Shown here piece by piece: positions 8,695 through 36,197 of a DNA stretch of 42,988 nucleotides. The position numbers and the translations under genes were made by a program. This DNA is from a virus. Its lineage: Duplodnaviria > Heunggongvirae > Uroviricota > Caudoviricetes. The stretch lies in the IMG/VR virus record IMGVR_UViG_3300045988_149348; one strand, 5' to 3'. How positions within the stretch are numbered: the first letter of the stretch is position 1; the number at the start of each line of letters is the position of its first letter. Below the pieces are notes generated by a model that saw nothing but the letters and a program-made list of their open reading frames with translations, made no database searches and was not told where the DNA came from.

Positions 8695-8942
8695 ACTTTA
8701 ACAAAGTCTTTCGCTGGCAATCCATTCAGATACTCTATTGGACGGCCAATACAGCGAGCAGCCAAGGCTGCATGGACTTTATTATCAAGTGATGTTTGAA
8801 CTGAAACATGCCCTTGAGATTGCAGTAAGTCCGATACCTCTAAAATATCACTGCCTTTTAGGTTGTCTAAATCAAGGTTGAGTTCAGTCACCGGCTCAAA
8901 GTCTTCAAAACGATATTCTTTACTTAATTTAACGGTTTCCAT
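8661..8942 (-). CDS. tail assembly chaperone (gpE/G-like)
   Basis: 93-aa ORF between tube and tape measure; its 3' end is overlapped by a -1 frame ORF. Confidence 0.55.
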   Translation of the reverse strand: METVKLSKEYRFEDFEPVTELNLDLDNLKGSDILEVSDLLQSQGHVSVQTSLDNKVHAALAARCIGRPIEYLNGLPAKDFVKVCQKVQNFLLS

Positions 8943-8951
8943 TTTGTCACC

Positions 8952-9473: not shown

Positions 9474-9489
9474 AGCAACCTCCTATTAT

Positions 9490-10953
9490 TTATTCAGAAA
9501 ACAAGTTCAGCAGATAATCAGGATTATATTCCATGACGAACTCTATATCTCTGGCAGGTGAGAATGGTGTCATTTTTACATGGAATTTAACAATCCCGTC
9601 CATCAATGACGTAATCGTGTTTTCAGACTGATCAAAGGTAACAACACCACCTGCAATATCCTGATTACCTGTGAGGCCGTTAAGCCAAATATTCGCACTT
9701 GTAACAATCGATTCAATTAATCGACGGTTTGCAGGATTGTCTATTTTTGACCAATGCGAAAGAATTAACGTATTACCCACCCAGTTAAACATACGTCGGC
9801 AAACACGAAATGCGTCTTTGGGGTCTGTAGATGTTGGATAAATAGCATTACGGTTTCCCCATGATTTCCAACCATCAAAATTAAGGCTTGTTACAATCCC
9901 CTGTCCATTTAAGTAGTTTGCCTGGCTAATGTTAAGCCATACTTCACTGCCATCTTTACGTACAGCACCGTCCATCTGTAGTTTTATATTTGACGGAGAA
10001 CGTGATGGAATATCACCATACTGACTATCCAGCAAGCATGTTGCGGCCGCTAAATGGGTTGAGTGATGGTAAATATTGTCACCAAGTTTCACCATCGGCC
10101 AGCACACTGTCTGGTTAGCGGCCATGTGATTATTGTTCTGTTTCCATTCAGGAACAGCCGAGTAATCACTGATAGTAGATTTATCGGTCGGTGCATCAGT
10201 TATGGCTTCTGCTTTGAACAATTCACTAATCAACGCGGCTTTAGCCGCCATTAGCTGACCAACTTCACTATCAGAACTAAATCCAGGCGCAATCACTTGT
10301 CCAGGAACCAACTTGAAGCGGGGATACACATCAGACAGTAACTCAAGCCCTGTATTGGCTTTAGTGTTGGAATCCACACCACCGATAATGTCATTTTTAG
10401 TTACGGCACCGGGATCAAGATGCGTATAACTAACCTTAAGAGTAGCGTCTTTTTCGGTAATTTTTCCTCCGCTAATAGCGGTAATGACCGTATAGCCATT
10501 ATCATCCAGCGCCAGCACATAATCGGTATCAACCGTTAACCCTGCCGAATCACCATCTGCTTTTTTCACAACAACAGATTTATATAAGACACCATCGTTA
10601 GAGAGCGTACCTTTCCCGCCAGAAAGTTTTACTACCTCATCAGTTACGTCTTTCTTATGCTTTGCTGGATCAAGCACATTGATAAATACAACTGGCGCAA
10701 CACCATATATTCCAAATGCAACTTTAATTACTTCGCTTAAAGTATATTTCTCGAAGTTTGTGCTATATCCTATTTTAGATACGGCCTCTGCGTATGTATA
10801 AGCAATGATAGGTTTATTTACCGCTGAGGCTGGATCTTCTAACTGATTAACAGGAGCTGTACCAAATGCGACAATCAACCCAGCACTAACTTGTACTGGA
10901 GGAGTTATAGATGTAGCCAGCTCAGATATATAAATACCGTGGCGATATCCCAT
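9490..10953 (-). CDS. contractile tail sheath protein
   Basis: 487 aa, position upstream of the tube gene; sheath-like size. Confidence 0.7.
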   Translation of the reverse strand: MGYRHGIYISELATSITPPVQVSAGLIVAFGTAPVNQLEDPASAVNKPIIAYTYAEAVSKIGYSTNFEKYTLSEVIKVAFGIYGVAPVVFINVLDPAKHKKDVTDEVVKLSGGKGTLSNDGVLYKSVVVKKADGDSAGLTVDTDYVLALDDNGYTVITAISGGKITEKDATLKVSYTHLDPGAVTKNDIIGGVDSNTKANTGLELLSDVYPRFKLVPGQVIAPGFSSDSEVGQLMAAKAALISELFKAEAITDAPTDKSTISDYSAVPEWKQNNNHMAANQTVCWPMVKLGDNIYHHSTHLAAATCLLDSQYGDIPSRSPSNIKLQMDGAVRKDGSEVWLNISQANYLNGQGIVTSLNFDGWKSWGNRNAIYPTSTDPKDAFRVCRRMFNWVGNTLILSHWSKIDNPANRRLIESIVTSANIWLNGLTGNQDIAGGVVTFDQSENTITSLMDGIVKFHVKMTPFSPARDIEFVMEYNPDYLLNLFSE

Positions 10954-11243
10954 TATTTAATCTCCATGATAGAAGAAGAAACTCTAGAGTACATTACATA
11001 CTCGACACTGGTTTTATCAGAAAGTCTTTTTTCTGCATCTGCAAAATCACTGGTTGCCACAAACAAACACTTTGCACCAGGAATATGTGATATTAATTTT
11101 TCACACTCTGGAGATAAGCCATTCTTAAATAGTTTATGCTTCAAAATTGAGAGTTGAGGGATTGTTGGTCCTATATATACAAATGTTTGAGCAACATCTT
11201 CCTTCTTTTCTATATCTTCTTTACTACTTTTCTTATTAGCCAT
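10953..11243 (-). CDS. hypothetical protein, AT-rich small ORF
   Basis: 96-aa ORF with locally low GC between head-tail joining genes and the sheath gene. Confidence 0.35.
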   Translation of the reverse strand: MANKKSSKEDIEKKEDVAQTFVYIGPTIPQLSILKHKLFKNGLSPECEKLISHIPGAKCLFVATSDFADAEKRLSDKTSVEYVMYSRVSSSIMEIK

Positions 11244-11729
11244 TTAGATAAACTCCTGAGACTGAATATTCTGAGGCTTTAATACTAGCCACGTTCCAGT
11301 TGCTTCCGTTATCCAATATGGATATGGTTGATCATCAAACATTCGCCATCTGATATCACCCTGAAAGAGAAATTTCTCTTCAAGTAAAGGCTTCTCCTGA
11401 AAATGAAACATCATCCTTTCAAGAAGAGCCATTACCCATTCATATCCAGTATGGTCCTCACAAAAACCACCTAGAAGAAACTTAACCTTAACTTCATCCG
11501 TTTCAGGCTGCATTCCTCCTTCCGTGGGTCTGATAATCACATGAGGAAATTCTGGCGGTTTATCTGGAGATGGTTGTGATTTAGGAGGCAAGTATCCTTT
11601 AAATATTGTTGGAACAAACAATTTAATATCGCTGTCTGTTTCATCATAAGGAGGCCCCTGCACTAATAAATCATGGAAAACCTCATGTTCCAACCGATTT
11701 TTTATTGCATCTATCAAAAGATTAATCAA
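11244..11729 (-). CDS. hypothetical virion protein (possible tail completion/neck)
   Basis: 161-aa ORF in the head-tail junction block; function assigned by position only. Confidence 0.35.
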   Translation of the reverse strand: MINLLIDAIKNRLEHEVFHDLLVQGPPYDETDSDIKLFVPTIFKGYLPPKSQPSPDKPPEFPHVIIRPTEGGMQPETDEVKVKFLLGGFCEDHTGYEWVMALLERMMFHFQEKPLLEEKFLFQGDIRWRMFDDQPYPYWITEATGTWLVLKPQNIQSQEFI

Positions 11730-12070
11730 ATCGGCATTCCTCTGTTAGTATTAACAGTGAGAGTTATTTCCAATACACCAACATTATCTGATACTTCATC
11801 AACAATATAATTTTTACCGTTGATTTTCATTGACTGGTCTTTGACAGGGAGAACAGGAAAATCTTTTCTTGAAACAAATAATATTATTTGCCCCTGATTT
11901 ATTCCCTCTGCAAACTCAGCATATGAGCGTTTATTACGCTCATGAATAAGGTCTGTATCAATAACGGCAAGGATATCCTTGCCGTCTATGTTATATGTAT
12001 CGGCAAACTCTTTTTCATTGAGGAATATTGCAGAAATATCTTGCGCTATAACCTCTTTGAAGGAGTTCAT
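11726..12070 (-). CDS. hypothetical virion protein (possible head-tail connector)
   Basis: 114-aa ORF, coupled overlaps with neighbours. Confidence 0.35.
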   Translation of the reverse strand: MNSFKEVIAQDISAIFLNEKEFADTYNIDGKDILAVIDTDLIHERNKRSYAEFAEGINQGQIILFVSRKDFPVLPVKDQSMKINGKNYIVDEVSDNVGVLEITLTVNTNRGMPI

Positions 12071-12462
12071 TACTTCTTATTACCTTTTTTTTGCGTTGAT
12101 TTTTTCGCATTACTGGTATCAGAAGTAGCTACAGATTCAGATGAATCATCAGCAACCATTTCCTCATTGCCGCCATCATCCTCAAACTCAACCTCGAATA
12201 CACAGCTACCCGCCTCCGTTCGCGTAATCAACCCCGCGTCCACAGCATCATTAACAGCAGATGCGTATCCATGCTCAAAAGCTAACTTAGCAGCATCATA
12301 GCCCCCAGCCGATGCCAAATCACCATCCTCTTCGGTGGCAATAGCATGTCCTGACGCAATCAGTTCGGCAATTCTGGAGTTATCCATTAGCCCATTAAGC
12401 AAACGGCCCGCTTTTAGCGAGCCGTGGCTTATCGTATCAATGTTTTTAATCAGTCTGGCCAT
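12070..12462 (-). CDS. hypothetical acidic protein downstream of major capsid gene
   Basis: 130 aa, acidic with Lys-rich C-terminal tail; position only. Confidence 0.35.
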   Translation of the reverse strand: MARLIKNIDTISHGSLKAGRLLNGLMDNSRIAELIASGHAIATEEDGDLASAGGYDAAKLAFEHGYASAVNDAVDAGLITRTEAGSCVFEVEFEDDGGNEEMVADDSSESVATSDTSNAKKSTQKKGNKK

Positions 12463-13506
12463 TTAAACCACCTTAGCCACCAGATAGGCATCAGCCACAC
12501 CAGGATTAGGCAGTGGAGATGACTTCATGGCAACATAACGGCCAGCCGGCTTACGAGTTACCCAGGTGTCTGGAACTCGTGGCGACTCAACAATCGTTAG
12601 AGTCTTTTCGGCGTCATCTACAAGCTCTACAGCACCATACAGCATCGTTCCTCGACCAGGAGAGCCAAAGAGGATCTTATCTTCCGGTACTAATGGTTCT
12701 GGTTTTCCTGTTTTATCATTGCGAATAAGTTCGTCGTAACCATAAAAATCGACACCTTCAAGATTGCCATAATGAGTTACGCCTTCTTCTAACTCCTTAG
12801 GCTCAATATACCCAAGCTCTTTTCGGCGATTATCAAGATATTTAGTTACTGCTTCATTTTTAACGAAGGCATCAACAACTTTTGCGCCCATTACGGCAAC
12901 ACGAGGTGTAAAACCTGAAGTTAGTGATACCCGACGTTTCCAGTTGCGAACATTGACCAACGGATCTGATTTTGCTGCACTCCATAAATCATCACCTGTC
13001 AGTTCAAGATATGGTTTATCTCCTTCCTCTTCAGGCCAAAAATAAACTGTGTCATCCACTCCTTCACCAACAATATCAACCTGCCCCGTAAACAAGACTT
13101 GTGCACACATCCATTCTTCACGGCGGTTAACCATTTCATCAAGCTCAAGCAAATCTTTACCTAATTGCGCGGCGGCTCGTTCTGCTGGCGATTTTGCGTT
13201 GTAAATATTCTCACCCGGAAGCCTGTTTAAAAGCAGCTCGGCTGTTGTTACCAAATCAGGTGCAACAAGTGGTGGCTCCAGAGTTCTCGTTACAAAGCCG
13301 CGTCGCTCAACGGTTTTTGAGCCAAAACCTTTACCAACAAACGGAGCCATAGTACGGCCACCGCGAACAAAATCCAGATCAACTTTCTTTGTATTAAAGG
13401 TCTGAACACCAGGAAAAAAGGTACGAAGAAGAAAACGACGAGCCTTGAAATTCTGAATAACAGGCTCAAGCATTGTACGTCGTTCAAAAATATCAATATT
13501 CGGCAT
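12463..13506 (-). CDS. major capsid protein, lambda gpE-like
   Basis: 347 aa; N-terminal FLLRTFFPGV...LDFVRGG pattern as recalled for the major capsid protein E family; follows the decoration-protein gene as in lambda. Confidence 0.7.
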   Translation of the reverse strand: MPNIDIFERRTMLEPVIQNFKARRFLLRTFFPGVQTFNTKKVDLDFVRGGRTMAPFVGKGFGSKTVERRGFVTRTLEPPLVAPDLVTTAELLLNRLPGENIYNAKSPAERAAAQLGKDLLELDEMVNRREEWMCAQVLFTGQVDIVGEGVDDTVYFWPEEEGDKPYLELTGDDLWSAAKSDPLVNVRNWKRRVSLTSGFTPRVAVMGAKVVDAFVKNEAVTKYLDNRRKELGYIEPKELEEGVTHYGNLEGVDFYGYDELIRNDKTGKPEPLVPEDKILFGSPGRGTMLYGAVELVDDAEKTLTIVESPRVPDTWVTRKPAGRYVAMKSSPLPNPGVADAYLVAKVV

Positions 13507-13526
13507 AAAAATACGACCTCTTTATA

Positions 13527-13910
13527 TTATGCAGATGGATTTTGTTGTGCGGTATTAAGGAATATCCCAACCTTCCGGCAAGCCAGATATACATCGGCAA
13601 TCTTTGCTGATTCAGGAAGGATAACCGCATGTGCATTGAACATTCCGGTCAGCCATGCTGTTCCAACTTGCGCTGAATCAGTCGCATCAATACTATGTTG
13701 AGCGATACAATACGGTTCTTTTGCCACCCCCTCACCAGAGAGATTTATTGGTGCCACAGTGACAACATTTGTTGTCTGATCAATACTGACAAAAGCAAGC
13801 AACTCACCTCGATTTACTTTACCGCTGGCAAGTTTAATACTTGTTGTAATTGCTGGCATACCACCAGAAATAATCAGATTATCTGGTTCAAATGAAAAAG
13901 ACTCTCGCAT
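13527..13910 (-). CDS. head decoration protein, gpD-like
   Basis: 127 aa between protease/scaffold and major capsid genes. Confidence 0.55.
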   Translation of the reverse strand: MRESFSFEPDNLIISGGMPAITTSIKLASGKVNRGELLAFVSIDQTTNVVTVAPINLSGEGVAKEPYCIAQHSIDATDSAQVGTAWLTGMFNAHAVILPESAKIADVYLACRKVGIFLNTAQQNPSA

Positions 13911-13919
13911 AAACTCACC

Positions 13920-15008
13920 TTAATTTTTATCGCGGTTTTTAAATACTGACCCAATAACATTTTTTACTACTTCAGCTTGTTTATCGCCGTTGTTTTCTGG
14001 TTGATTAACATCAACTGAATCATTCACCTCATTTGCGTCTTCTTGCCGTTGATTAAGAAAGTTTTTGTTACGCGCTCGCTCTGCATTCATAATTTCCAAA
14101 GCAAGTTCAGCCGCAGAAATTCCCGTTTTGAATTTTGCATTCTTAACCAGGTCGTCATGACCTGGAATTACGCTATTCTCGATTGTTTCAATGCGCTCGC
14201 GTTCTGATTTAACGCCCTCGTCTTTACCAGCATTAAAAACCTGATTGTATAATTCTGGATGTTTATTTTTTAATTCATCAAGAGTCACAACATCGTCCTC
14301 ATTTTGTTCATTTAATTCAGTAGATAATTCATTTTTATTTTGTGGCAACTTTGCGAGCGAATCAGGTAATTTTGAAAACCTTGATGCTTCAAAAGTTATT
14401 CCATTGAGCGAAAGCATCCCTTCCTTTATAGAAGCGGATAAGCGCATTGGTTTTTCAACTTCGTCAGCAAATCCAAGCTCTACAGCCTCTTCTGCATTTA
14501 GCCATGTTTCCTGATCCATTAGTTCAATTAATTTATCCTCAGAAAGCCCTGTTTTCTCCTTATATGCAGATAAAATACTATCTCGTATCTTATCCATCAT
14601 CTCAGCAATATCACGTAGTTCATCCGCATCACCAGCAGCAAATGTCCACGGATTATGGATCATCATCATAGCATTAGATGGGATAACAACTTTATCACCT
14701 GCCATTGCAATAATGGTTGCAGCCGATGCAGCAATACCATCAATATAAACAGTAATATTAGCCTTATGACGTTTTAATGAAGAAAGAATAGCTTGAGCAG
14801 TAAAAACAGAACCACCATAACTATTAATTTTTACGTTGATAGCATTTGATGATATATCCTTTAATTTATTAACTATGTCAGAAGAAGAAACCTCATCAAA
14901 TTCGCCAATATATCCGTAGATTAAAAGTTCAGCCGGAGAGTCATCTTCACCCGTGCTATTTTTTATTTCCCACCAATTAGGCATCATCTGTCTCCATATT
15001 TTGTTCAT
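13920..15008 (-). CDS. head maturation protease (S49/ClpP-like) with C-terminal scaffold-like region
   Basis: 362 aa; N-terminal INSYGGSV...IDGIAASAATIIAMAGDKVV resembles S49-type prohead protease; C-terminal half is charged and coiled-coil-like. Confidence 0.7.
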   Translation of the reverse strand: MNKIWRQMMPNWWEIKNSTGEDDSPAELLIYGYIGEFDEVSSSDIVNKLKDISSNAINVKINSYGGSVFTAQAILSSLKRHKANITVYIDGIAASAATIIAMAGDKVVIPSNAMMMIHNPWTFAAGDADELRDIAEMMDKIRDSILSAYKEKTGLSEDKLIELMDQETWLNAEEAVELGFADEVEKPMRLSASIKEGMLSLNGITFEASRFSKLPDSLAKLPQNKNELSTELNEQNEDDVVTLDELKNKHPELYNQVFNAGKDEGVKSERERIETIENSVIPGHDDLVKNAKFKTGISAAELALEIMNAERARNKNFLNQRQEDANEVNDSVDVNQPENNGDKQAEVVKNVIGSVFKNRDKN

Positions 15009-16551
15009 TTACCTCAGAAACAGGAGGCGTAATCAGCCCCAACTCACGGCGAGCATTCTCTTCTCTGCCACAAATTTGTGCGGTTTCTTCCCAGTTAAGA
15101 CCTGACATTTCAGCCGCTTCCTTTTCACGGGTAGAGAATGTTTCCTCAACACGCAGTTTTGCAGCTTTGACTTCTTTAAGGGGATCTAATTGGCCTTGTG
15201 ATGGGCCATACCATTGAGCGCCACTCCATGCAGCGCGATATTCAGGCCCATAAAAAAAACCAGGGGCAATAACACGACCTTTAGCAACGGCTTCGGCCAA
15301 CCATTCCTCATAGATCGGTTGGCAAAATGACTGAACCATCCAGTCACGTCGCATACGGAACATTTTCCAGGCTTCAAGTAATGCGGCCCTGCTTGCGCTA
15401 TAACTTGCTGTAAAATGCTTTACCAAAAGTTCGTAAGGGAGTTCTAAAGCAGCCCCAATTTGACGGCATATGGCGACAACAAAACCATCAAATGCCGTAT
15501 TTGGTCGCCCGGGATTTGCTGTATCTATCGACTCACCTTCACCCAAACTTACTATGGAGCCATTCCCCATTTCTTGGGTGTTATCATCATGGTTATCGAT
15601 CTGCTCGTACTGAGGGATACCCGATTCACCGACTGGTCCATCAGGAGCGTCTGTTTTAATAAAGACAGTAAACATCCCTGACACAACCGCAGCAACCAAT
15701 TCAGCATCGGTGTATCGTCCTAACTGCTTCAATGCTTCAATAACAGGAGCAAGAACAGGAACGCCACGGCGTTGCCCAGGCCTTTCAAAATCCTGCATGA
15801 CATGCAGAATATTTCTTCTTCCTGTTTTACTCCCATATGCTGGAATACGTTCCCACTTGCGGGTTACAAAACCAGAAGTCCCGGCTGGGTGATGTTTTGC
15901 AACCCAGTACGCCACAGGCTCGCTAAATTCACCAACCTCTACGCCACCGTAAAGATTTGGTATAAAACGATCCTCTGGATTGCAAACACGATCACCTTCA
16001 ATTAAATAGACGCACAAATCATATATAACACCCTTACGCTTAATAACTGGTAGCGCAGCAAATATATCGCCAGATGTTAACGCAGATATTTGGACCAATG
16101 ATTGCAATTGTCCAAAAGTACACATTCTTGATGCATCACAATTTGGAGAATCAGCCCATAATCTAAACTCACGCTCAACATGCTTTTCCCATGCTCGCGC
16201 TTCTTCCTGCGTCATCCCCAAGAAATCGGCATCAATGTTCGCATTTAGTTTTAAACCGGAACCAACAACGTTTGTCCTGATAGTTTTTATTGCGCCAACC
16301 GATAGCGGGTTTCCCATGAAGAGATCACGAGAACGCTCACGCAATTTATCTATATTTTTAACAATATCATCATCAGGAGAACCAGCTTTACTAAACCAAC
16401 CCCTTAATGATTTTTTATGAGTGCTTGCACCATGACGTGAATATCCAAGGTTATTAATACCTTCAAGTGCTTCTAACCGTTTTCTTGCCAAAGCTCGATT
16501 TAATGCCCTCTGAGGTGAAAACGGCGCAATAACTCGATCAAGAATATTCAT
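14977..16551 (-). CDS. portal protein, lambda gpB-like
   Basis: 524 aa between the gpW-like gene and the protease, as in lambda W-B-C order. Confidence 0.7.
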   Translation of the reverse strand: MNILDRVIAPFSPQRALNRALARKRLEALEGINNLGYSRHGASTHKKSLRGWFSKAGSPDDDIVKNIDKLRERSRDLFMGNPLSVGAIKTIRTNVVGSGLKLNANIDADFLGMTQEEARAWEKHVEREFRLWADSPNCDASRMCTFGQLQSLVQISALTSGDIFAALPVIKRKGVIYDLCVYLIEGDRVCNPEDRFIPNLYGGVEVGEFSEPVAYWVAKHHPAGTSGFVTRKWERIPAYGSKTGRRNILHVMQDFERPGQRRGVPVLAPVIEALKQLGRYTDAELVAAVVSGMFTVFIKTDAPDGPVGESGIPQYEQIDNHDDNTQEMGNGSIVSLGEGESIDTANPGRPNTAFDGFVVAICRQIGAALELPYELLVKHFTASYSASRAALLEAWKMFRMRRDWMVQSFCQPIYEEWLAEAVAKGRVIAPGFFYGPEYRAAWSGAQWYGPSQGQLDPLKEVKAAKLRVEETFSTREKEAAEMSGLNWEETAQICGREENARRELGLITPPVSEVNEQNMETDDA

Positions 16552-16787
16552 AAATCTCTTATCACCACTCGTTTAATTCGTGGGCCTCGGCGTATACCTG
16601 CTGATAATCTTTCTACTTCATTACGCCAGTAATCCATCTCTTTTCTGACTTCTGATAAATCCGCACGAGTTAACTGCCGCGTACCAAATTTATATGACTG
16701 ACCGCCAATAGCAATAGCGCGATATGCTTCCCGCCAGACAGATAACATCTCTCTGGCTTCAGTCAGAGAAAATGCTTCATTGTTCAT
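16548..16787 (-). CDS. head-tail joining protein, gpW-like
   Basis: 79 aa directly after the large terminase, as in lambda. Confidence 0.55.
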   Translation of the reverse strand: MNNEAFSLTEAREMLSVWREAYRAIAIGGQSYKFGTRQLTRADLSEVRKEMDYWRNEVERLSAGIRRGPRIKRVVIRDL

Positions 16788-16798
16788 TTATATTTCCT

Positions 16799-18655
16799 CT
16801 ATATGGTTACGCCTTTACTTATAACTCTACGACGTCTTCTACGTATACCTGACGAGTTCTGCACATACACATTACCTCGCATTTCCTGTTCGGCAAGCCA
16901 GTTAAAATTAGGGTTCAGAATTTCCATCGCGGCAGTTGCATAGTTACGGCAATCAAGAGGCTCGTTACGCTCGTAGACTTTCACCCACTTTTCTTTTGTC
17001 TGCCCATTTTTATATTCAAATATTTTTTTCTCTGATAATAATCCTTTAAAGTATTCGGTATCATATCCTCTGTCAGAATCTAATGGGAAATGCATATAAC
17101 CAGGACCAGGATCATGTAGTTTAATTCTTGCCATGATGGTCCCTTTACCATCATCAACCCCCAAATTAAACAACATAGCACCCACACGGTTATTATTACT
17201 TGGCTTTCCTATAAATGGTAAACCTACCCCACCACGCCCCCTGATAGAGTATATTCGCCTTGATTCTCTCGGCTTAGTAAAGCGATATACCTCTGTCGTA
17301 AAATGCCCACCAGAGTCAATACAAACGGAAGAAATCTGTAATTTTCGACCGTCACGGAATGACCAGCTACGGAGTAAGTATTCATCAAGTTGTTTCCAGA
17401 CAACATCTTGTGCGGGATCACCTGGGAATATTTTATATTCTATCCCCCATGACTCCTTACCTTTTCCCCAACCGACCAATTCACAAACTAAATACGTGTC
17501 CTGTACGTCAACACCAGCACTTAACAATAAAACATCATCTGGTAAAAACTCTTCAAACCTTATTCTGCGTTGCAACAAGTATTCAGGATCGATATCGTCT
17601 TTAGCATCCTCTTTCCATGGCTCACCCAGCTTAAGGTTAATAAACTCCATTAATCCATTTTTATCGCGGTTTCTGGTTGCTTCCGTAAATTCTTCAACCA
17701 GCTCTGACAATGCAACCCACGGGGAGTAAAGACTGTTAATATGAAAACCAACAATACCTTTAACTCCAGTATGTTCAGCTATCCATACCCCCTTCGCCAA
17801 CCAATCAACGTCTGGTTTACCAGATCCGCGCATAATCCCGCCGCACTCACAGCACTCATATCTGGCCGTTTCCGGTAACGCCTCACCTGAATCGCTCTTA
17901 TCCCATCTGACTTGCGACCATTTCATCACCTGCATGGTGCCACAACATGGGCAAGGAACATGGTAGTAACGCTGATCGGAGAGCTTAAACCACTTGTGGA
18001 TTTTGCTCGTTTCCTCCAAAACAGGAGTAGAAACAAAAACTTTCTTACGATTATGAAAGTTGGTAGTACGCTGAATACCTAGTTTTAGTGGGTCGCCCTC
18101 CTGCGTCACACCGTAACGATCAATCTCATCAGCTAACAGTATTCGAATTGGCCTGGATGCAAGACCTGCTGGGGAATTAGCACCAACAAGTGCTATATAT
18201 CCACCAGCGTAATGCTTCATACGTATAGTCGTGCTGGACTTTTTGGCTGCACCGCGCCCCTCTTTCCCTTCATGCAGCTTGTGTTTCAAACCAGGGGAAT
18301 ATTTGAACGTCGGATCAATACGCTCCTTTGAAAAAGCCTCAGCCGCCTCTACCGTTGGATAAATCATCAACTGAGGAGATGGCTCCTGATCTGCAAAGTA
18401 ACCCATAACATTTAGCTGTAATTCGGATTTACCAATTTGTGAGCTACATTGCATCACTACTGTTTCTGTATCAGCGTCACCAATAACATCCATTGGTTCA
18501 CGCAAATATGGCACTCGGCTTGTACGCCACGGCCCTGGCTCTGGAGACGTTCCCGGCGCTACATGACGATACTTATCAGCCCATTCGGAAACAGTTAGCC
18601 GTGATTTAGGGCGAAGCGCACGGAAAAAAGCGGTGCTCCATACTGTTTCGCCCAT
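16799..18655 (-). CDS. terminase large subunit, GpA family
   Basis: 618 aa; N-terminal TVSEWADKYRHVA...VMQCSSQIGKSEL pattern as recalled for lambda gpA; cysteine cluster CPCCG...CCECGG. Confidence 0.8.
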   Translation of the reverse strand: MGETVWSTAFFRALRPKSRLTVSEWADKYRHVAPGTSPEPGPWRTSRVPYLREPMDVIGDADTETVVMQCSSQIGKSELQLNVMGYFADQEPSPQLMIYPTVEAAEAFSKERIDPTFKYSPGLKHKLHEGKEGRGAAKKSSTTIRMKHYAGGYIALVGANSPAGLASRPIRILLADEIDRYGVTQEGDPLKLGIQRTTNFHNRKKVFVSTPVLEETSKIHKWFKLSDQRYYHVPCPCCGTMQVMKWSQVRWDKSDSGEALPETARYECCECGGIMRGSGKPDVDWLAKGVWIAEHTGVKGIVGFHINSLYSPWVALSELVEEFTEATRNRDKNGLMEFINLKLGEPWKEDAKDDIDPEYLLQRRIRFEEFLPDDVLLLSAGVDVQDTYLVCELVGWGKGKESWGIEYKIFPGDPAQDVVWKQLDEYLLRSWSFRDGRKLQISSVCIDSGGHFTTEVYRFTKPRESRRIYSIRGRGGVGLPFIGKPSNNNRVGAMLFNLGVDDGKGTIMARIKLHDPGPGYMHFPLDSDRGYDTEYFKGLLSEKKIFEYKNGQTKEKWVKVYERNEPLDCRNYATAAMEILNPNFNWLAEQEMRGNVYVQNSSGIRRRRRRVISKGVTI

Positions 18656-18660
18656 GAGGT

Positions 18661-19221
18661 TTATTCTTCCTGCTTAATAAATCGGGATTCCTGGAGCGCC
18701 TGAAGCGCAAAATTAATCTCGTCTTCAATAATGCGTTCGATCTCCCTGGCTGTTTTGCCTTCACAACGGGGAGCTGCTCTTGGAGCAATACTAAATAAGC
18801 GGCTACGCAATTCATTAGCTGCCAGAAATGCATCATCCCTGACCGCATCTTTAGCGATGAGAGAGCCTTCCTTTTCTTCAAATTCAAGGCGTTTCAGCTT
18901 TGCCTGATAAATTTTTTCTGCGGTCTTAGCCTTGTTGAATTGCACCGCAACACCGGAAGTACCACCAGCTAATCCGGCATCATCAGCGGGTAACTCTGGT
19001 TGTTCCGAAGATATCCCATGCCCTCTTTTTCCATTTTCAGCAGATACCTCACGACCAACCTGTCGGCTCGCTTCATAAGCCGCACTGGCTTTATCAAAAT
19101 CCAGCTTGCCGCTTTTCAGCACTGGAATGCGACCGGAACGACAGAGCTTCGTAACCATTGCCGGAGAAATACCTTTCCGGCGGGCAAACTCTGACTTACT
19201 GACGATGGCCATTACTTGCAA
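18661..19221 (-). CDS. terminase small subunit, Nu1-like
   Basis: 186 aa with N-terminal helix-turn-helix (VSKSEFARRKGISPAMVTKLCRSGRIPV) immediately upstream of the large subunit. Confidence 0.6.
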   Translation of the reverse strand: MQVMAIVSKSEFARRKGISPAMVTKLCRSGRIPVLKSGKLDFDKASAAYEASRQVGREVSAENGKRGHGISSEQPELPADDAGLAGGTSGVAVQFNKAKTAEKIYQAKLKRLEFEEKEGSLIAKDAVRDDAFLAANELRSRLFSIAPRAAPRCEGKTAREIERIIEDEINFALQALQESRFIKQEE

Positions 19222-19802
19222 CCATTAGCAAGATACTGAACAAATCCCTCATGCGTTTCATGCGCGTCGTGGTACTGACGATAAACATCCAGCAACAATG
19301 CAATTTCCATATCCGTCGCGGGAATACGTTCTTTATCAATAGCCAGGTACTTAATTTGAACAACAGGGGAAGAATTATCGTCTTCTTCCTGCGGCTGTTC
19401 ATCGCTTAACATTTCGTCAAGCTCTGCATCATTAAACCCAAGCAGATCAATATCAAAATCATCATCCATTAACTCTTTGACTTCTTCGGCCAGAAGCTGC
19501 ATATCCCAGCCAGCATTTAAGGCCAGCTTGTTATCTGCAATCCTGTACGCCTTCTTCTGTTTTTCAGAAAGGTTACTCAACCGAATCGCCGGAACTTTAT
19601 CCATTTCCAAAATTTCGGCTGCTGCAAGCCGCCCATGCCCCGCAATCAGTTCATTCTTTTCATCGATCAGCACAGGATTAGTGAAACCGAACTCACGGAT
19701 ACTGTTCACCAACTGCTCAACTTGCTCATCTGAATGAGTCCGTGAATTTTTGGCATATCTGAGCAGCTTACCGACTGGTAAATATTCGATTTTTAGAGCC
19801 AT
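19212..19802 (-). CDS. ParB/Srx N-terminal domain protein (paralog 1)
   Basis: 196 aa; NSRTHSDEQVEQLVNSIREFGFTNPVLID...IAGHGRLAAA is a ParB N-domain-like motif; paralog of 22469..23092. Confidence 0.6.
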   Translation of the reverse strand: MALKIEYLPVGKLLRYAKNSRTHSDEQVEQLVNSIREFGFTNPVLIDEKNELIAGHGRLAAAEILEMDKVPAIRLSNLSEKQKKAYRIADNKLALNAGWDMQLLAEEVKELMDDDFDIDLLGFNDAELDEMLSDEQPQEEDDNSSPVVQIKYLAIDKERIPATDMEIALLLDVYRQYHDAHETHEGFVQYLANGCK

Positions 19803-20359
19803 TTTTTAACCGCCATAACACAACAGGTTAAAGAAAACTGTTTAACTTATTGATACTAAAAGAGAAAAATGACGATCTTTTTACTCATAAAGAATCACAC
19901 AAACCAGCATAATCATCTGATTTTATTAAGTTTTTATAAGTAAAAAGGATCTTGCGATGGTTTTTTGGTTAAAAGATTGGATGTATTTGCATGATTTATA
20001 ACGATTTTTATCAGAACAACATCACATTGGTTAAAGATCTGCGCGTATCTTGATGATCTAAAAGAAAATTTTCTACTTTCTTTTTACCAGCACAAGCACA
20101 GCAAAAAATCACGTTTTCCCAATATTTTTCAATGAGATGAGTAAATTTCTTTTACCGCAACTTTTAACCTAACTTTTTTCACGTTTAGCTAGCCGAACAT
20201 CGGGGTTCGAATGACCCGCATCCAACGCTTTTGGCCAGAAGGACCCAATTCTGCCGGACGATGAAACGATGCTCGTGCACCCCCACAGACAGCCTGCGAG
20301 CGACGCTACAGAACACAGTGAATACACTCTGCATAACAACACCATCAACCACACGATGA

Positions 20360-21079
20360 TTAACGAGAGAAGGTCTTAGAAAGAATGTCATCAATAGCCT
20401 TTGTGACTTCATCAGCAAACGCATCCTCACCAGCACGCAGCGCCACGCCATGCCAATCAAGACGCTGCGAATAGTTAGGTTGCTGGATAAACGTAAGGAT
20501 CAACGTAGGACGCCGCCCAACGCGCTGCCAGACGCCTGGTTGAAGCGGGTTACTTGTACCAGGTCGAACAACAAAAAACTCCGTAGGCTTGCCCTGACGG
20601 CGATTTTGATGCGCATCTCGCTGAACTCTTAGGCCAGATAAGACCTGCTGTAATTGCCCCCGCGAAATATTCCCGTATTTGTCCAGCTTTGCGCCGGGAC
20701 CAGGAGCAAGCTGCCAGCCGTTAGGCAAATATCCACCAGCCCTTAGCGCCCCTTCTGAGCGTTTGTACTGTCGTTGGCCACCTTCGATTTGCGGAGTCAA
20801 CGTTACAGGGGCTGGCGTTCCTCCCCATTCACGAGCATACACAATGGCTGTAGGATCACTCTTCTTTGCGGCCAAAACGTAAGTAGAGTTCTGAATCCAC
20901 GGCGTGGGCCTGTCAAATACCCGATTAATTTCATTCTTAATCGCAGCCTGAGAAGCCTTTGCCGTTCTGGTTGCCGCAAGCGCCATTGCGAACGGCAATT
21001 CGCGTTCTTCAAGGCGCTGGAGTTGTCGTTGAATATCCTGAGAAGAAAAATCCATCTTTATCTCAATTCTGTCAGCCAC
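20360..21079 (-). CDS. hypothetical protein
   Basis: 239-aa ORF in the GC-rich block between the ParB-like genes; no recognised motif. Confidence 0.4.
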   Translation of the reverse strand: MADRIEIKMDFSSQDIQRQLQRLEERELPFAMALAATRTAKASQAAIKNEINRVFDRPTPWIQNSTYVLAAKKSDPTAIVYAREWGGTPAPVTLTPQIEGGQRQYKRSEGALRAGGYLPNGWQLAPGPGAKLDKYGNISRGQLQQVLSGLRVQRDAHQNRRQGKPTEFFVVRPGTSNPLQPGVWQRVGRRPTLILTFIQQPNYSQRLDWHGVALRAGEDAFADEVTKAIDDILSKTFSR

Positions 21080-21095
21080 CAGCGCCTCCTACACA

Positions 21096-22475
21096 CTACT
21101 TAATCAACGGCCGGAAAGCCGCCAGCACATCATCAGATCGTCCGATTGTTGAACCACCAGGCAACGGCAACTCAAACTCAAAACGAACAGCTTTCTCCAG
21201 ACTCGCCCAACTAAGGGAATCATCGTTAATGACGTGCAAATACCAGCTCTTACAGTTGAATATTGACCGCTTAATCCTGAAACCATGTACACGACACAAC
21301 TGCTTCACTTCCTCATCAGAGTGAAACTTCTGGTAAAACCAGTGCCCCTTCCGGTACAACGCGGTAAAACCGTTATGATCAATAAAATAAAGCCGGCTTT
21401 TGGAACTCGCCGCTTGTGTCTGCTTCAGGACTGTTTCCAGCTCTCCACGGCTACGGCCAGAAAAGAATATTGACCCACCAGCTTTACACAGCCCTTTCAG
21501 AACCGTCAGAACGGACCATTCAGCCTCGACACTATCGACCGAGTTCAAAACGCTATCGCAAATCACGTAGTCGTAACGCCCTCGCGTTTTTAAGTCGTCC
21601 ACCAGCGTATCAATCATCCGGTTTGTTGCGGTCCTATCCAGAGTGTTTCCAGCGCCCTTACGGCGGAAAAGCTCAAGATCATGCAGGTTATATCCCTTTG
21701 CCCTGAGCATTCGCGCGTAGTCTCCCTGACCCGAACCAAAATCAATTCCTCTTGGCGTCTTGGCAATGATCGGGAGGATCAACGACTCATACAGGTTTGA
21801 TTTCAGGCTGCCACCATTACGCAACCGCATAAGCTGCGCATACGTCTGGATGTATGTTGTTTTCTCCAGATGAGAATACTCAAATACACCATAAGTTTTA
21901 TTCAGATAACTTTGGTATTTTTCCTTCTCAACATCAGGGATCACAAACACCGTTAGCGGTGTGCGCGTCATCTTCGCTGCTAATGCATACTGAGCACAGT
22001 GAATAACCTCGCCAGACTGCGTAGCAACACAACCACCCCACGGACCATACTTGATAACCAGTTCCGCTATGTTCTTTCGAACATATGCCATTTTCGCGCG
22101 CATATTGCCTGAGATCTGGCTTGCCGATACCTGAACAAAACCATGCTTATCTTCCAGACCTGACACCCTGCAACGCTCATCTCCGCTGTCAAAATCCGTT
22201 CCGTTATGCAGTTGGTTAAACCGTACTTCGTCGTATACCGTCGTTTCACAGGGCAACACATACACCGCAGCACGCGTTATTCCCAACTTACGTAGCGCCT
22301 TCGTCCTTTGGTGTCCCGCCACCAGCAAATCGCCGCGCACTATCAATGGCTTCACAAGCCCCAGCTCCCTGACGCTTTCCGCCAGCCTCGCAAGATCATC
22401 CTCACCGATAAAACGCGGGTTATATTCCGCGCCGCGTAGGTGCGTTATGTCGTAATTGAGATGAAGCATCAGCAC
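21096..22475 (-). CDS. ParB N-domain / class I SAM-dependent methyltransferase fusion protein
   Basis: 459 aa; N-terminal ParB-like motif (PLIVRGDLLVAGHQR); C-terminal Rossmann methyltransferase motifs (GIDFGSGQGDY, LHDLE, YDYVICDSVL); no DPPY-type motif seen. Confidence 0.55.
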   Translation of the reverse strand: MLMLHLNYDITHLRGAEYNPRFIGEDDLARLAESVRELGLVKPLIVRGDLLVAGHQRTKALRKLGITRAAVYVLPCETTVYDEVRFNQLHNGTDFDSGDERCRVSGLEDKHGFVQVSASQISGNMRAKMAYVRKNIAELVIKYGPWGGCVATQSGEVIHCAQYALAAKMTRTPLTVFVIPDVEKEKYQSYLNKTYGVFEYSHLEKTTYIQTYAQLMRLRNGGSLKSNLYESLILPIIAKTPRGIDFGSGQGDYARMLRAKGYNLHDLELFRRKGAGNTLDRTATNRMIDTLVDDLKTRGRYDYVICDSVLNSVDSVEAEWSVLTVLKGLCKAGGSIFFSGRSRGELETVLKQTQAASSKSRLYFIDHNGFTALYRKGHWFYQKFHSDEEVKQLCRVHGFRIKRSIFNCKSWYLHVINDDSLSWASLEKAVRFEFELPLPGGSTIGRSDDVLAAFRPLIK

Positions 22476-23092
22476 ACCTCCCCAGCCAGCAATGCGGATA
22501 CAAATCCGATATAGCTGCCATTATCATCAACATAACGAGACACCGCGCAGTCAAAACGATCCGCTTCCTCATCCGTTGCCGGGATTTTATGACCTCCAAA
22601 TGACAGGTACTGAACTTTTACGCCTGATTTGGCCTCATCCTTCTCAAATGGGATATCCATACCCTCTGTGTCATCGTAGACCGCCGCACTCAATAAGTTA
22701 TCCAGTTCGCGCTGAGTAAAACCAATTGAGTCCAGAGCAAAATCATCGGCCGCAAGATCTGCAAGCTCCGCGCTTAACAACTCTTCATCCCAACCAGCAT
22801 TCAGCGGAATACGGTTGTCGGCCAGACGATATGCCTTCTTCTGATTCTCCGTTAGCCCTTCCAGAACAATGCAGGGAACGTCATCCATCCCCAACTGAGT
22901 GGCCGCAGCAATTCGACCATGACCAGCAATTACAACGTTGTTCTCGTCTATCAGGATCGGATTAGTCCATCCGTACTCCTGTATGCTGGCAACAATCTGA
23001 TCTACCTGCTCCACGGAGTGTGTGCGAGCGTTCTTTTCATAACCAATCAACACAGAAAGTGGTAAAGAAACCACATTAAGATGTTTTGTCAT
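22469..23092 (-). CDS. ParB/Srx N-terminal domain protein (paralog 2)
   Basis: 207 aa; NARTHSVEQVDQIVASIQEYGWTNPILID...IAGHGRIAAA; shares the C-terminal KIPATD motif with paralog 1. Confidence 0.6.
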   Translation of the reverse strand: MTKHLNVVSLPLSVLIGYEKNARTHSVEQVDQIVASIQEYGWTNPILIDENNVVIAGHGRIAAATQLGMDDVPCIVLEGLTENQKKAYRLADNRIPLNAGWDEELLSAELADLAADDFALDSIGFTQRELDNLLSAAVYDDTEGMDIPFEKDEAKSGVKVQYLSFGGHKIPATDEEADRFDCAVSRYVDDNGSYIGFVSALLAGEVC

Positions 23093-23214
23093 GCCGTTTA
23101 TCCGCTAAAATCCCCTCGCTTGTGCAAGCAAGTGGGCCTCGGTTTGTATCCACGGCACCCTGTGGGTATGAATGACTGTCGTCAGGTCGCAACTGACGGC
23201 GGGTGAGAGTGAAT

Positions 23215-23290
23215 TGGTGGCCCCTACCGGATTTGAACCGATGACCGTGCGATTATGAGTCGCCTGCTCTAACCACTGAGCTAAGGGGCC
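23215..23290 (-). tRNA. tRNA with CAU anticodon (Met or Ile2/lysidine type)
   Basis: 76-nt cloverleaf folded by hand: 7-bp acceptor stem, GCTC/GAGC D stem, anticodon loop CUCAUAA, T loop TTCAAAT, 3' CCA encoded. The 5' 42 nt match E. coli ileX-type tRNA as recalled. Confidence 0.8.
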
Positions 23291-23459
23291 ATATTTGATC
23301 TGTTTGTCTGGTGTGGCGCCGCGCACGAAAATCCCAGCCAATAAATTCAGGATTTTTGGGCGCGGCGGCATATCAGACAAACATGGTTGATGCGTGCGCC
23401 CATGAGAAAAGCGCATAGAATGTTGTAACTATATATTTATATAATTATAGAAATATATA

Positions 23460-23669
23460 TTACTTGGGGCAGTTGATTTCCCATGCCCTGTTATGAGCCA
23501 GAATATCTTTCTTTGTCTGGCGGTCCATAACATCGATATCGTGATCAGTCAGGTAGATGGGCTTTACCCAATCACAGGCGGTATCAACCACCACCGGGAC
23601 GCTTCCACGACTCCCGCAGCTCGCGATCAACATCGTCATCAGCCATATGGTTAACACTCTGCTGTACAT
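23460..23669 (-). CDS. o-spanin, Rz1-like lipoprotein
   Basis: 69 aa with lipobox LIASC; overlaps the 3' end of the Rz-like gene in another frame. Confidence 0.55.
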   Translation of the reverse strand: MYSRVLTIWLMTMLIASCGSRGSVPVVVDTACDWVKPIYLTDHDIDVMDRQTKKDILAHNRAWEINCPK

Positions 23670-23862
23670 TCCCCACCTCTTTTGTCACTTCTATACGCCG
23701 CTCCGCAGTGGCTTTTACGGCGGCTGCATTCTCATTAATGCGCTGCTTTTCAGCTTCATCTTCGGCCTTTTCTCGCCCCTTCATACGACCAAAACCAAAC
23801 GCACCGAATGCAACCAATATAACGGTGCCGATAAATGACAAAACGGCTTTCAAACCAGTCAT
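23584..23862 (-). CDS. i-spanin, Rz-like
   Basis: 92 aa; N-terminal transmembrane segment then charged coiled-coil; directly downstream of the endolysin. Confidence 0.55.
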   Translation of the reverse strand: MTGLKAVLSFIGTVILVAFGAFGFGRMKGREKAEDEAEKQRINENAAAVKATAERRIEVTKEVGNVQQSVNHMADDDVDRELRESWKRPGGG

Positions 23863-24401
23863 ACCACCACTCGCTCTTTCATCCAGCCGTAGACAAACGA
23901 CTCATTAGCCTCGCGCTTCTCCGCCAGCTCCAGATAGCGTTCGCCCTGCGTACAGTTCAGCGACGTCAGCATCACCCGTTCGCCGTCTTTTCCCCGATTC
24001 CCAAGATAAGCACGTAGCGCATTAATGGTACGTGGACCGATTCGTCCGTCTGCATCCAAATCGGGATACAGCTTCCCGCGCAGGTTGAACACATTCAGCC
24101 AGCGTTGAAGCATTTTTGACGCCACTGTTGGCCCCATGTTCACCCCCGTGTCACACAGCTCTGCGGCAATATCAGAGGATAATGCGGCCACCTGATCAAA
24201 GCGTGGTCCGTACCAGTAATCAGCCTCAAGGATTTCCAGTGCCTGTTCGCGGGTTAAATCGCGCATATCGCCACGGTATCCATGAGCACGGGCAGTGTTC
24301 TGAGTAATGCCCCACTTTGTTGGGCCTCCCTTGTCGTCAGGGTGATCCACATAGCCGCCCTCTTTTCCAAGAACGCTGTTAAAAATCTCATCTTTGGTCA
24401 T
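23859..24401 (-). CDS. endolysin, GH108-type muramidase with peptidoglycan-binding domain
   Basis: 180 aa; N-terminal EGGYVDHPDDKGGPTKWGIT motif as recalled for glycoside hydrolase family 108 lysins. Confidence 0.7.
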   Translation of the reverse strand: MTKDEIFNSVLGKEGGYVDHPDDKGGPTKWGITQNTARAHGYRGDMRDLTREQALEILEADYWYGPRFDQVAALSSDIAAELCDTGVNMGPTVASKMLQRWLNVFNLRGKLYPDLDADGRIGPRTINALRAYLGNRGKDGERVMLTSLNCTQGERYLELAEKREANESFVYGWMKERVVV

Positions 24402-24684
24402 GATTAAACCCTAATGCGTCAACTATCCGCGCCAGATTGCCCCTGAAATACAGAACAACGATGCAGATAATCAGATTTCCAATAACCACCAGCCAGTGGG
24501 ATTCTTGATAAAGACCGAACACATAACGGAAGGGAACATTGGCGTATACAATGACGTAGATATAAGCCAGAAAGGAAACAAATGGACGATGCCTGGAGTC
24601 TTTCCGTCGATAAAGCATCAGCGCCATTACTATTACTGTGCAAAGCACCGCATTAATCAGTGCTGACGGGTCACTGCTTACCAT
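24388..24684 (-). CDS. membrane protein, holin/antiholin-like
   Basis: Multi-pass hydrophobic ~98-aa ORF (from internal Met) between the holin-like gene and endolysin. Confidence 0.4.
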   Translation of the reverse strand: MVSSDPSALINAVLCTVIVMALMLYRRKDSRHRPFVSFLAYIYVIVYANVPFRYVFGLYQESHWLVVIGNLIICIVVLYFRGNLARIVDALGFNHDQR

Positions 24685-25066
24685 TTGAACCCCCTCCACG
24701 TAAGCGGGAAAGCATTCCAAAGATGCTACCGAGATCCTGGCTGTTTACGAACGTGAGGATTTTAATTGTCAATGCAGCCACAATAACCGCACCAAGTGCA
24801 TCAAGAGGACGATCGTTGTAGCTGGTCCATTTGGCAAGAAATGAGCCAACTAACGGCGCTCCAATCACTCCAACAATGAACGATGTAAAGAAATAGCCAA
24901 TCAGCTTGAGACGGCTAATATTCACCGCTGTAGCAACATAGAAAACAGCGCCAGCAAATGCCCCGAATACAACGCCGTAATCAATACCAGTTGCAATACC
25001 AAAAACGCTGGCACCCATCAGGCCACCAGCAGCAACGGCCGTACCGGAAATTGGTTCTGCTGACAT
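24671..25066 (-). CDS. holin-like membrane protein
   Basis: 131 aa, Gly/Ala-rich transmembrane segments, first gene of the lysis cassette; GAGGA Shine-Dalgarno 5 nt upstream. Confidence 0.5.
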   Translation of the reverse strand: MSAEPISGTAVAAGGLMGASVFGIATGIDYGVVFGAFAGAVFYVATAVNISRLKLIGYFFTSFIVGVIGAPLVGSFLAKWTSYNDRPLDALGAVIVAALTIKILTFVNSQDLGSIFGMLSRLRGGGSNGKQ

Positions 25067-34446: not shown

Positions 34447-34469
34447 TAAAAAAGGCCCCCGAAGGGGCC
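34447..34469 (-). terminator. rho-independent terminator (minus-strand orientation)
   Basis: GGCCCC-CGAA-GGGGCC hairpin with an A-run on the plus side, giving a U-run on the minus strand after the small peptide ORF. Confidence 0.55.
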
Positions 34470-34475
34470 TAATCG

Positions 34476-34598
34476 CTACTTGCTGCTAATGTTTATCGTC
34501 ACATTCAGAGCGTTATCAGTAATCTTCCAACCCTCCCCATGTGGCGTAAACAAAGCTCCAGTAACAACGATAAAAATACACATGTAGTATTTTTTCAT
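34476..34598 (-). CDS. small hydrophobic peptide (40 aa), candidate membrane peptide
   Basis: MKKYYMCIFIVVTGALF...; AAGGG 8 nt upstream of ATG 34598; own terminator downstream. Low confidence. Confidence 0.3.
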   Translation of the reverse strand: MKKYYMCIFIVVTGALFTPHGEGWKITDNALNVTINISSK

Positions 34599-34976
34599 TG
34601 TGTGGCCCTTACAGGCCGTTTCACGGCATCCCCACCGACGAAAATGACGCGAGAGCAAGCACGCTGTTTGTGCCTGCGTGGTACGGCAAGTGGATAATCC
34701 TTTCCTGAAAGTCGGTGCCCGGTTGCGAATCGGCGAAAAGGCCCCGCGTAATGTTACACCGCAGCCCCTTCATAATGAAGGGATAAAAATGTATTGTTTT
34801 TCATTAGGTTAAATACACACCACAAAAATCACTCGCTTTTGTGCTCTAATAAACCAAATTTATTTGGACAATTTTATTCAGTTGGGTAAGAATATGGTTG
34901 CTGTTTGTGCTTGCGTGGTTGTATTTATACAACAACGTAATGCTGAAAGGACCGCGAATCCGATCAGCACGAAAGA

Positions 34977-35737: not shown

Positions 35738-35839
35738 TAAATGCGCCATTGGTGGACACTTTCCGAGCCGTAGCAAAATCTACGGTCGGGATTGGAACCC
35801 CGTAGACACAATGGCGCATACCGCGTTAGCGGTTTTTTT
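35738..35839 (+). ncRNA. candidate c4-like antisense regulatory RNA with intrinsic terminator
   Basis: Structured ~100-nt region: GCGCCATTG...CAATGGCGC long-range stem, CCGTAG/CTACGG inner stem, then ACCGC-GTTA-GCGGT plus UUUUUUU terminator (35820..35839). 35789..35817 is complementary in two blocks (CATTGTGTC, GTTCCAA) to 35917..35941 in the downstream leader. Confidence 0.5.
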
Positions 35840-36005
35840 ATGCGTAAAGCACTGCTACACCCAAATTATGGTGGGGCGTGCGGGGGAGTCGTAAGACTCG
35901 CCGGTTCGTCATTGTGTCCGGTAGTTCCAACCCTGCACGTCTCACCACCCAATGATTGGAACCTGACGGTGGTGAGTATCCTTAACCTTTAAGGGAATCA
36001 TCACA

Positions 36006-36197
36006 ATGACAAACCTACCCCATGACTATTACGTCAACCTCGTAAAGATCCTTCTCAAGAAAGCCTCATACGCCGATAAAGTCCGCCTGGCTGAAATCAT
36101 CGAGCGCGAAGCTATGCGCATCGCCAGCAACGATAACGCTGTTTCTGACGCAAAAATCTCCCTCGTAACCAAAGTAGTTATGGGAGGTGCAAAATGA
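36006..36197 (+). CDS. icd-like small ORF, translationally coupled to the antirepressor gene
   Basis: 63-aa ORF whose TGA stop overlaps the ATG of the next gene (ATGA); AAGGG ribosome-binding site lies in a CCTTAA/TTAAGG hairpin. Confidence 0.5.
   Translation: MTNLPHDYYVNLVKILLKKASYADKVRLAEIIEREAMRIASNDNAVSDAKISLVTKVVMGGAK

Follow-up and report, generated by a model that had tools for sequence, protein, structure and literature searches.

An intact CAU tRNA gene of the tRNA-Ile2 type, predicted to read AUA, on an E. coli phage-plasmid

Results and discussion

A single tRNA gene between the lysis cassette and a ParB_N/Srx block

The DNA analysed here is a phage stretch of 42,988 bases (the window, by which we mean the whole stretch at its full length). 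ARAGORN reports one tRNA gene in it, with the anticodon CAT at position 34 (Table 1). The gene lies on the minus strand and reads GGCCCCTTAGCTCAGTGGTTAGAGCAGGCGACTCATAATCGCACGGTCATCGGTTCAAATCCGGTAGGGGCCACCA, 76 nt with the CCA encoded. The match to Rfam family RF00005 scores 67 bits against a gathering score of 29 (E=1.4e-12), the four helices and the T-loop GTTCAAATC are present, and 20 of the 21 cloverleaf pairs are standard, the sole exception being G-A at 27-43. An earlier note on this DNA had described a complete 76-nt cloverleaf with encoded CCA and a CAU anticodon and had proposed a tRNA-prediction tool as the check; both ARAGORN and Rfam accept the fold, at exactly the bases that the note gave, and the strand, which it left unstated, is minus. 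An ORF of 103 aa that overlaps the tRNA (23105-23416) was treated as spurious.

In the direction of transcription the early genes are followed by two holins, the GH108 endolysin and the spanin-like ORF; then come the tRNA, the ParB_N/Srx block, the terminase and the head and tail genes, and the structural genes that follow the terminase are rich in AUA. The lysis genes match Phage_holin_8, Phage_holin_3_7 and Glyco_hydro_108+PG_binding_3 in Pfam, in agreement with the RefSeq annotation of relatives, and the spanin-like ORF matches the Rz-like spanin of mEp390. The tRNA had been placed between a ParB block and the lysis cassette, and that position stands, with the genes on either side all on the minus strand. 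The identity of the block does not: its ORFs encode ParB_N/Srx-domain proteins ahead of the terminase and not a partition system, and in the annotation of the related ATCC 25922 plasmid the partition-type ParA and the RepA initiator of this family are encoded away from it.

Table 1 Features of the window and of the records compared with it
Feature	Position	Strand	Basis or remark
Packaging/structural genes (ORFs)	1-19802		
ParB_N/Srx-domain block, three ORFs	19212-23092	minus	downstream of tRNA; Pfam and RefSeq annotation
ParB_N/Srx ORF fused to methyltransferase domain	21096-22475		one of the three ORFs of the block
tRNA 3' trailer, 12 nt	23203-23214	minus	ends at joint 23202/23203, where ~2.8-kb cargo is missing
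tRNA gene assigned to tRNA-Ile2 (ileX/P1 trnI type), CAU, 76 nt with encoded CCA	23215-23290	minus	ARAGORN, Rfam RF00005, alignments, RefSeq labels
Rfam RF00005 match	23218-23290		
Hairpin/palindrome, 83 nt, near-perfect, 34-nt arms	23301-23383	either	just upstream of tRNA
AT-rich block (minus strand …ATATATTTCTATAATTATATAAATATATAGTTACAACATTC…)	23415-23462	minus	between lysis genes and hairpin
Lysis cassette: two holins, GH108 endolysin, spanin-like ORF	23460-25066	minus	upstream of tRNA in transcription direction
ryfA RNA	34448-34746	minus	full-length Rfam RF00126 match, 136.6 bits against gathering score 80
isrK-like RNA	35767-35839	plus	67.7 bits
C4 antisense RNA	35864-35952	plus	77.8 bits
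Cargo junction in comparison records	L003 4243-7000; L001 2987-5838; L002 7340-7343		
P1 trnI	NC_005856.1 70933-71008		annotated 'tRNA-ile2 (CAT)'
Stx2 phage ileZ	comparison record L251 1501-1576		top anticodon-stem pair A27-C43
tRNA set of P1-like 94-kb E. marmotae plasmid	comparison record L129 5005-6086		

The host element is a phage-plasmid

Over most of its length the window is ~98-99% identical to Yersinia phages vB_YpM_39/41/44 and, to a similar degree (~98-99%), to ~58 circular plasmids of 47-50 kb from E. coli and close relatives, including the plasmid of the reference strain E. coli ATCC 25922. PLSDB holds 58 records with the tRNA-hairpin segment and 58 with the family terminase gene (each at no less than 80% coverage, counted as separate sets), numbers that speak for strong retention of the tRNA in the family. 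The ATCC 25922 plasmid encodes RepA, ParA, a RelE/ParE-family toxin, P2-like tail genes, terminase, portal protein and capsid protein, whereas neither a tyrosine integrase nor TilS is annotated on it, the only recombinase being a small recombinase-family protein. Judged by its sequence, the host element is a ~48-kb P2-tailed myovirus phage-plasmid of E. coli with RepA and ParA. Two sources on this phage-plasmid family, PMC11177050 (whose phage is a putative member) and bioRxiv 10.1101/2022.06.29.498070, make no mention of the tRNA.

A plasmid with RepA/ParA whose tail genes are P2-like is not lambdoid, and the lambdoid Q/lysis setting suggested by the earlier note has to be given up: there is a single tRNA, it follows the lysis genes instead of preceding them, and the window contains no cluster of tRNAs between Q/pR' and stx/lysis genes of the kind found in lambdoid late regions. 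A parallel in that direction is ileZ of Stx phages, likewise a phage-borne tRNA-Ile2 near late and lysis functions. It is, however, only 84% identical to the window tRNA and belongs to a three-tRNA cluster of a lambdoid prophage, ileZ-argN-argO, which lies downstream of Q and ahead of stx. In the window both stx and a tRNA cluster are missing, and the RefSeq records of the family list no Q.

Sequence determinants point to isoleucine

The gene was aligned to ileX, ileY, metT and metZ of E. coli K-12 (NC_000913.3), and PGAP annotation of identical sequences served to represent isotype-specific tRNA calling. The window tRNA matches ileX at 68 of 76 positions and is much less similar to metT/metU or to the initiator gene metZ. 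Positions 1-42 and 66-76 are without any difference from ileX; the first of these spans runs from the 5' acceptor strand through the D arm, the 5' half of the anticodon stem and the anticodon loop, and takes in most of the 3' half of that stem. This bears out the statement in the earlier note that the 5' half is of the ileX type. The anticodon loop, CUCAUAA with CAU, is that of ileX, and the tRNA shares this loop, the TilS determinants and the discriminator A73 with both chromosomal AUA decoders, the lysidine-modified products of ileX and ileY.

E. coli TilS requires C4-G69 and C5-G68, and the U4-A69/A5-U68 pairs of tRNA-Met block it (PMC2500205; PMC1635315; PMC11947777); both required pairs are present here. 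TmcA, which acetylates C34 of tRNA-Met to ac4C, needs C27-G43, C30-G40 and G44 (PMC2500205), and the window tRNA has none of these, carrying G27-A43, G30-C40 and C44 in their place. The alignment thus contains none of the elongator tRNA-Met features at either set of positions. The marks of initiator tRNA-fMet are a C1xA72 mismatch, A11-U24 and G29-G31/C39-C41 (PMC1635315). All are missing from the window tRNA, which has G1-C72, C11-G24 and C29 G30 A31, and since it lacks the mismatch, A11-U24 and the G29-G31 run it is not an initiator. The identity elements recognised by IleRS are said to have been given by Nureki et al. in 1994 as A73, U12-A23, C29-G41 and C4-G69, and all four are found.

Existing labels for this one 76-nt gene disagree. 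The identical sequence is tRNA-Ile in RefSeq/PGAP records of E. coli plasmids (e.g. NZ_CP020518.1) and tRNA-Met in the GenBank records of Yersinia phages vB_YpM_39/41/44 (OR545053-55), while ARAGORN returns 'tRNA-Met (cat)' for the window gene. ARAGORN names a tRNA by its anticodon only, so the three CAU tRNAs are indistinguishable to it and its label carries no weight; for the same reason a naive ARAGORN run, as the earlier note proposed, would mislead. An elongator tRNA-Met reading AUG would fit the ARAGORN and GenBank labels as well as the report that tRNA-Ile2 acts as a Met tRNA when unmodified (PMC1635315), but we consider it extremely improbable. C4-G69/C5-G68 stand in place of U4-A69/A5-U68, the C27-G43, C30-G40 and G44 set is missing, the gene is far closer to ileX than to metT, whose acceptor and anticodon stems are different over their whole length, and RefSeq labels the same sequence tRNA-Ile. 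The evidence favours Ile, and the 76 bases are well supported as an intact isoleucine tRNA-Ile2 that would read AUA if lysidine-modified. Conversion of C34 to lysidine and charging with isoleucine would be expected from determinants measured on other E. coli tRNAs.

A diverged tRNA-Ile2 lineage shared with P1

The window tRNA departs from ileX at eight of 76 positions. On the 3' side of the anticodon arm U43 is replaced by A and U44 by C; in the T stem G49-C65 becomes A-U and U51-A63 becomes C-G, both compensatory changes, and C50-G64 becomes a U-G wobble, such that all three altered pairs still pair; in the loop G59 becomes A. The nearest described relative is trnI of P1, with 72 of 76 positions identical (the four substitutions, window/P1, are C6/T, A26/T, T50/C and A59/G). 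Both lie on E. coli phage-plasmids with AUA-rich genes, and P1 trnI has the same departures from ileX at A43, C44 and the T-stem pairs A49-U65 and C51-G63, the features by which, together with its location on a phage-plasmid, we place the window gene in the P1 trnI lineage. The two settings differ. The flanks are unrelated, and P1 trnI is preceded by tciC and followed by ban, with the annotated C1-controlled ban promoters ~2.2 kb upstream of it and trnA and trnT also upstream, whereas the window gene is a single tRNA with the lysis cassette on one side and the packaging genes on the other.

The anticodon arm GGCGACTCATAATCGCACGGTC, which includes A43 and C44, was present in more than 120 IMG/VR contigs among the matches listed and in one of 185,579 species-representative genomes, there on an 83-kb contig with P1-type flanks. 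A search for a chromosomal donor with the exact 3' half of the tRNA gave no matches in the same 185,579 genomes, and since no donor is visible the lineage looks confined to mobile elements. It also occurs in P1-like plasmids of 80-95 kb, inside tRNA clusters. The 121 lineage copies listed comprise 13 variants, in which every stem change preserves pairing and variation is limited to the unpaired positions 26 and 59 or to C/T changes opposite G. One diverged tRNA-Ile2 lineage therefore appears to circulate between two unrelated families of E. coli phage-plasmids, the P1-like elements and the 48-kb family, while being absent from the chromosomes sampled.

A P1-like 94-kb plasmid of E. marmotae carries a tRNA-Ile2 of this lineage beside tRNA-Ser(TGA), Thr(TGT), Tyr(GTA) and Arg(TCT), a larger set than the Asn/Thr/Ile trio of P1.

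The tRNA occupies a variable cargo slot

In nearly all relatives the tRNA is followed by ~2.8 kb of cargo, an MT-A70 methyltransferase gene and five or six small ORFs, which BLAST and the junction sequences show to be missing from the window. Plasmid pN10e carries an independent deletion that ends 2 nt from the window joint and again spares the tRNA, so that two independent deletions removed the adjoining cargo and ended 12-14 nt past the tRNA. The exact tRNA-ParB junction of the window was found in no other complete E. coli genome, PLSDB plasmid or phage record searched. A diverged relative, the S. salamae plasmid CP053324.1 (terminase about 80% identical), has no tRNA; backbone homology to it ends ~6 nt before the tRNA 5' end and resumes at ~23195-23202. 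Because homology stops beside the tRNA and resumes past it, the tRNA sits in a variable cargo slot. Most E. coli members have the tRNA plus ~2.8 kb (MT-A70 methyltransferase, small ORFs) in this slot, S. salamae has ~3.5 kb of different ORFs there, and the window has the tRNA alone with a ~5-nt leader and the 12-nt trailer. The window thus offers a clean natural case in which the tRNA is the sole piece of cargo retained when the adjoining cargo was deleted.

This arrangement raises the question of whether the tRNA is a passenger, a landmark of recombination, retained for reasons at the DNA level, that marks a hot spot for cargo insertion or a former attachment site. Its place at the edge of a slot whose contents differ (2.8 kb in E. 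coli, 3.5 kb in S. salamae, none in the window), the two independent deletion joints 12-14 nt from its 3' end and the occurrence of its lineage between unrelated flanks in P1-like elements would all be in keeping with that idea. The ATCC 25922 member, however, has no tyrosine integrase and the complete family records are circular plasmids; the gene is full length with CCA and its stem substitutions all preserve pairing; and the slot does not depend on the tRNA, because the S. salamae relative has the slot without it. We therefore regard a landmark role as unlikely.

Just upstream of the tRNA lies a hairpin with a folding energy of -40.3 kcal/mol (z=-6.4). The tRNA-less S. salamae relative has this hairpin too: 27 pairs are shared, there are four compensatory changes, and no pair is broken. 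On the strength of this conservation the hairpin is assigned to the phage backbone and not to the tRNA. It may serve as a leader structure, a terminator, an RNase III/processing site or a protein-binding palindrome. At a permissive E-value Rfam finds only the tRNA in 23000-23600, the sub-threshold miRNA/plastid matches to the hairpin and the antisense strand being meaningless.

The S. salamae relative also retains the AT-rich block farther upstream with hardly any change, and the block is almost invariant where the matching segments of this region are only 71-76% identical between relatives. It may be a regulatory site or an (activator-dependent) promoter that serves the tRNA and the late genes downstream. 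A sigma-70 consensus scan of 22400-24500 returned no minus-strand promoter, the P1 C1 operator (ATTGCTCTAATAAATTT, up to 3 mismatches) gave a single chance-level match at 34856, far from the tRNA, and the -22 boxes of the P1 late promoters LPpac and LPhot have no match near the tRNA.

AUA-rich genes and a probable role in AUA decoding

Codons were counted with one simple ORF rule applied to the window and to a 50-kb sample of E. coli K-12. Across all ORFs of the window AUA accounts for 17.3 of every 1000 codons and for 27% of Ile codons; the corresponding figures in the K-12 sample are 3.0 and 5% (odds ratio 5.9, Fisher p=4e-37). The earlier note had asked for this comparison with the host in the late genes, and the packaging/structural genes downstream of the tRNA are the richest part at 21.6 per 1000 (32%), followed by the remaining genes at 14.9 (24%) and the ParB block at 9.4 (18%); the lysis genes right upstream of the tRNA have almost no AUA, 3.9 per 1000 (6%). 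The 225 AUA codons are the most numerous of the host-rare codons, and the enrichment ratio of 5.7 is second to that of AGG (5.9). The enrichment of AGA and AGG is close to that of AUA, but the element has no tRNA-Arg. Other carriers of the lineage are similar, with 16.3 AUA per 1000 codons on the ATCC 25922 plasmid, 12.9 in sampled P1 DNA and 14.6 on a P1-like plasmid, so that their AUA use is about four to six times that of the K-12 chromosomal sample.

The proposal that this is a tRNA-Ile2 reading AUA once lysidine-modified is accordingly supported on several fronts, by the 5' 42 nt identical to ileX, the TilS pairs, the missing TmcA determinants, the RefSeq tRNA-Ile label and the 5.7-fold AUA frequency relative to the K-12 sample. 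We think it likely that the gene is a functional phage-plasmid tRNA-Ile2 that supplements the scarce AUA decoder of the host while AUA-rich genes are expressed. Supply of an AUA decoder in lytic growth is the best explanation because AUA is so much more frequent in the window than in K-12 and most frequent in the structural genes downstream. This reading draws its support from the identity determinants, from how well the gene is conserved, from the bias towards AUA and from a location just ahead of AUA-rich late genes. Minus-strand transcription would probably proceed with the late genes or at their head; RNase P would trim the 5' end, the CCA being already encoded; and host TilS would convert C34 to lysidine, which should turn a methionine/AUG tRNA into an isoleucine/AUA one. 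The additional tRNA would then top up the host AUA decoder, chiefly for the packaging and structural genes directly downstream. The lineage to which it belongs is almost restricted to mobile elements and shared with P1 as trnI; in the 48-kb family the gene occupies a variable cargo slot and stays there despite the loss of other cargo. The tRNA is not essential to this phage type, because the diverged S. salamae relative does without it.

Phage tRNAs can evade tRNA-targeting defences, and a role in counter-defence or host independence would have the gene replace a degraded, depleted or cleaved host tRNA-Ile2, with A43, C44 and the T-arm changes aiding escape. In keeping with this, the lineage is found essentially only on mobile elements, and its positions 43/44 and T stem set it apart from all chromosomal tRNA-Ile2 genes sampled. 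Anticodon nucleases usually attack the anticodon loop, however, and here that loop is identical to the host's; we know of no nuclease that targets tRNA-Ile2, and the AUA enrichment is a simpler reason for carrying the gene. A counter-defence role thus seems very unlikely, and we retain AUA-decoder supply as the working interpretation.

The open pair at the top of the anticodon stem

A43 turns the G27-U43 wobble of the host into an unpaired G-A and leaves an anticodon stem of 4 bp. None of the nine lineage variants aligned has the host-type G27-U43 top pair, a feature defined by the enterobacterial sequences compared here; all nine have G27-A43. An alignment of 15 sequences, with the host types and Stx ileZ among them, shows standard pairing throughout at 20 of the 21 pairs; 27-43 alone is open, and only in phage-borne lineages. 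The top pair of Stx-phage ileZ is likewise unpaired, as A27-C43, whereas host ileX/ileY have G-U. We rejected the generalisation that 27-43 is open in all phage tRNA-Ile2 genes. Pectobacterium phage Ymer, Erwinia phage Gungnir39 and Proteus phage ABTNLPp2 carry tRNAs of the same isotype and presumed role that are identical to ileX over all 76 nt, unlike the window gene with its diverged mobile-element lineage. Because these exact copies keep G27-U43, the open pair is specific to certain lineages and not general.

Two published observations bear on what the open pair might do. Substitutions in the anticodon stem are reported to impair E. coli TilS (PMC11947777), and lysidine modification could be less efficient here because G27-A43 replaces the host G27-U43. 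Moreover, a 4-bp anticodon stem opened at the top has recently been reported to let a C34 anticodon read a third-position A, as with tRNA-Trp CCA reading UGA (PMC13092985). Since G27-A43 is conserved across the lineage and Stx ileZ is independently open at A27-C43, adaptation instead of drift can be contemplated: by analogy, the phage tRNA could read AUA before or without lysidine, or be handled differently by TilS/TmcA. We give this idea little credence and hold it to be decidedly unlikely. If it were true, a burst of transcript that outran TilS would put Met at AUA.

Phage-borne tRNA-Ile2 is already known from P1 trnI and Stx ileZ, and this exact sequence is already a RefSeq tRNA-Ile; only the conserved unpaired G27-A43 and the restriction of the lineage to mobile elements are mildly unusual. 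Our understanding of phage tRNAs is unchanged by these results.

Other structured RNAs in the window

Away from the tRNA locus, Rfam also matches a ryfA RNA, and an isrK-like RNA and a C4 antisense RNA lie in tandem (Table 1). The tandem pair stands just upstream of ORFs at 36006-37375, where the annotation of a relative gives an ORF6N-domain protein, and looks like a P1/P7-style antisense immunity module.
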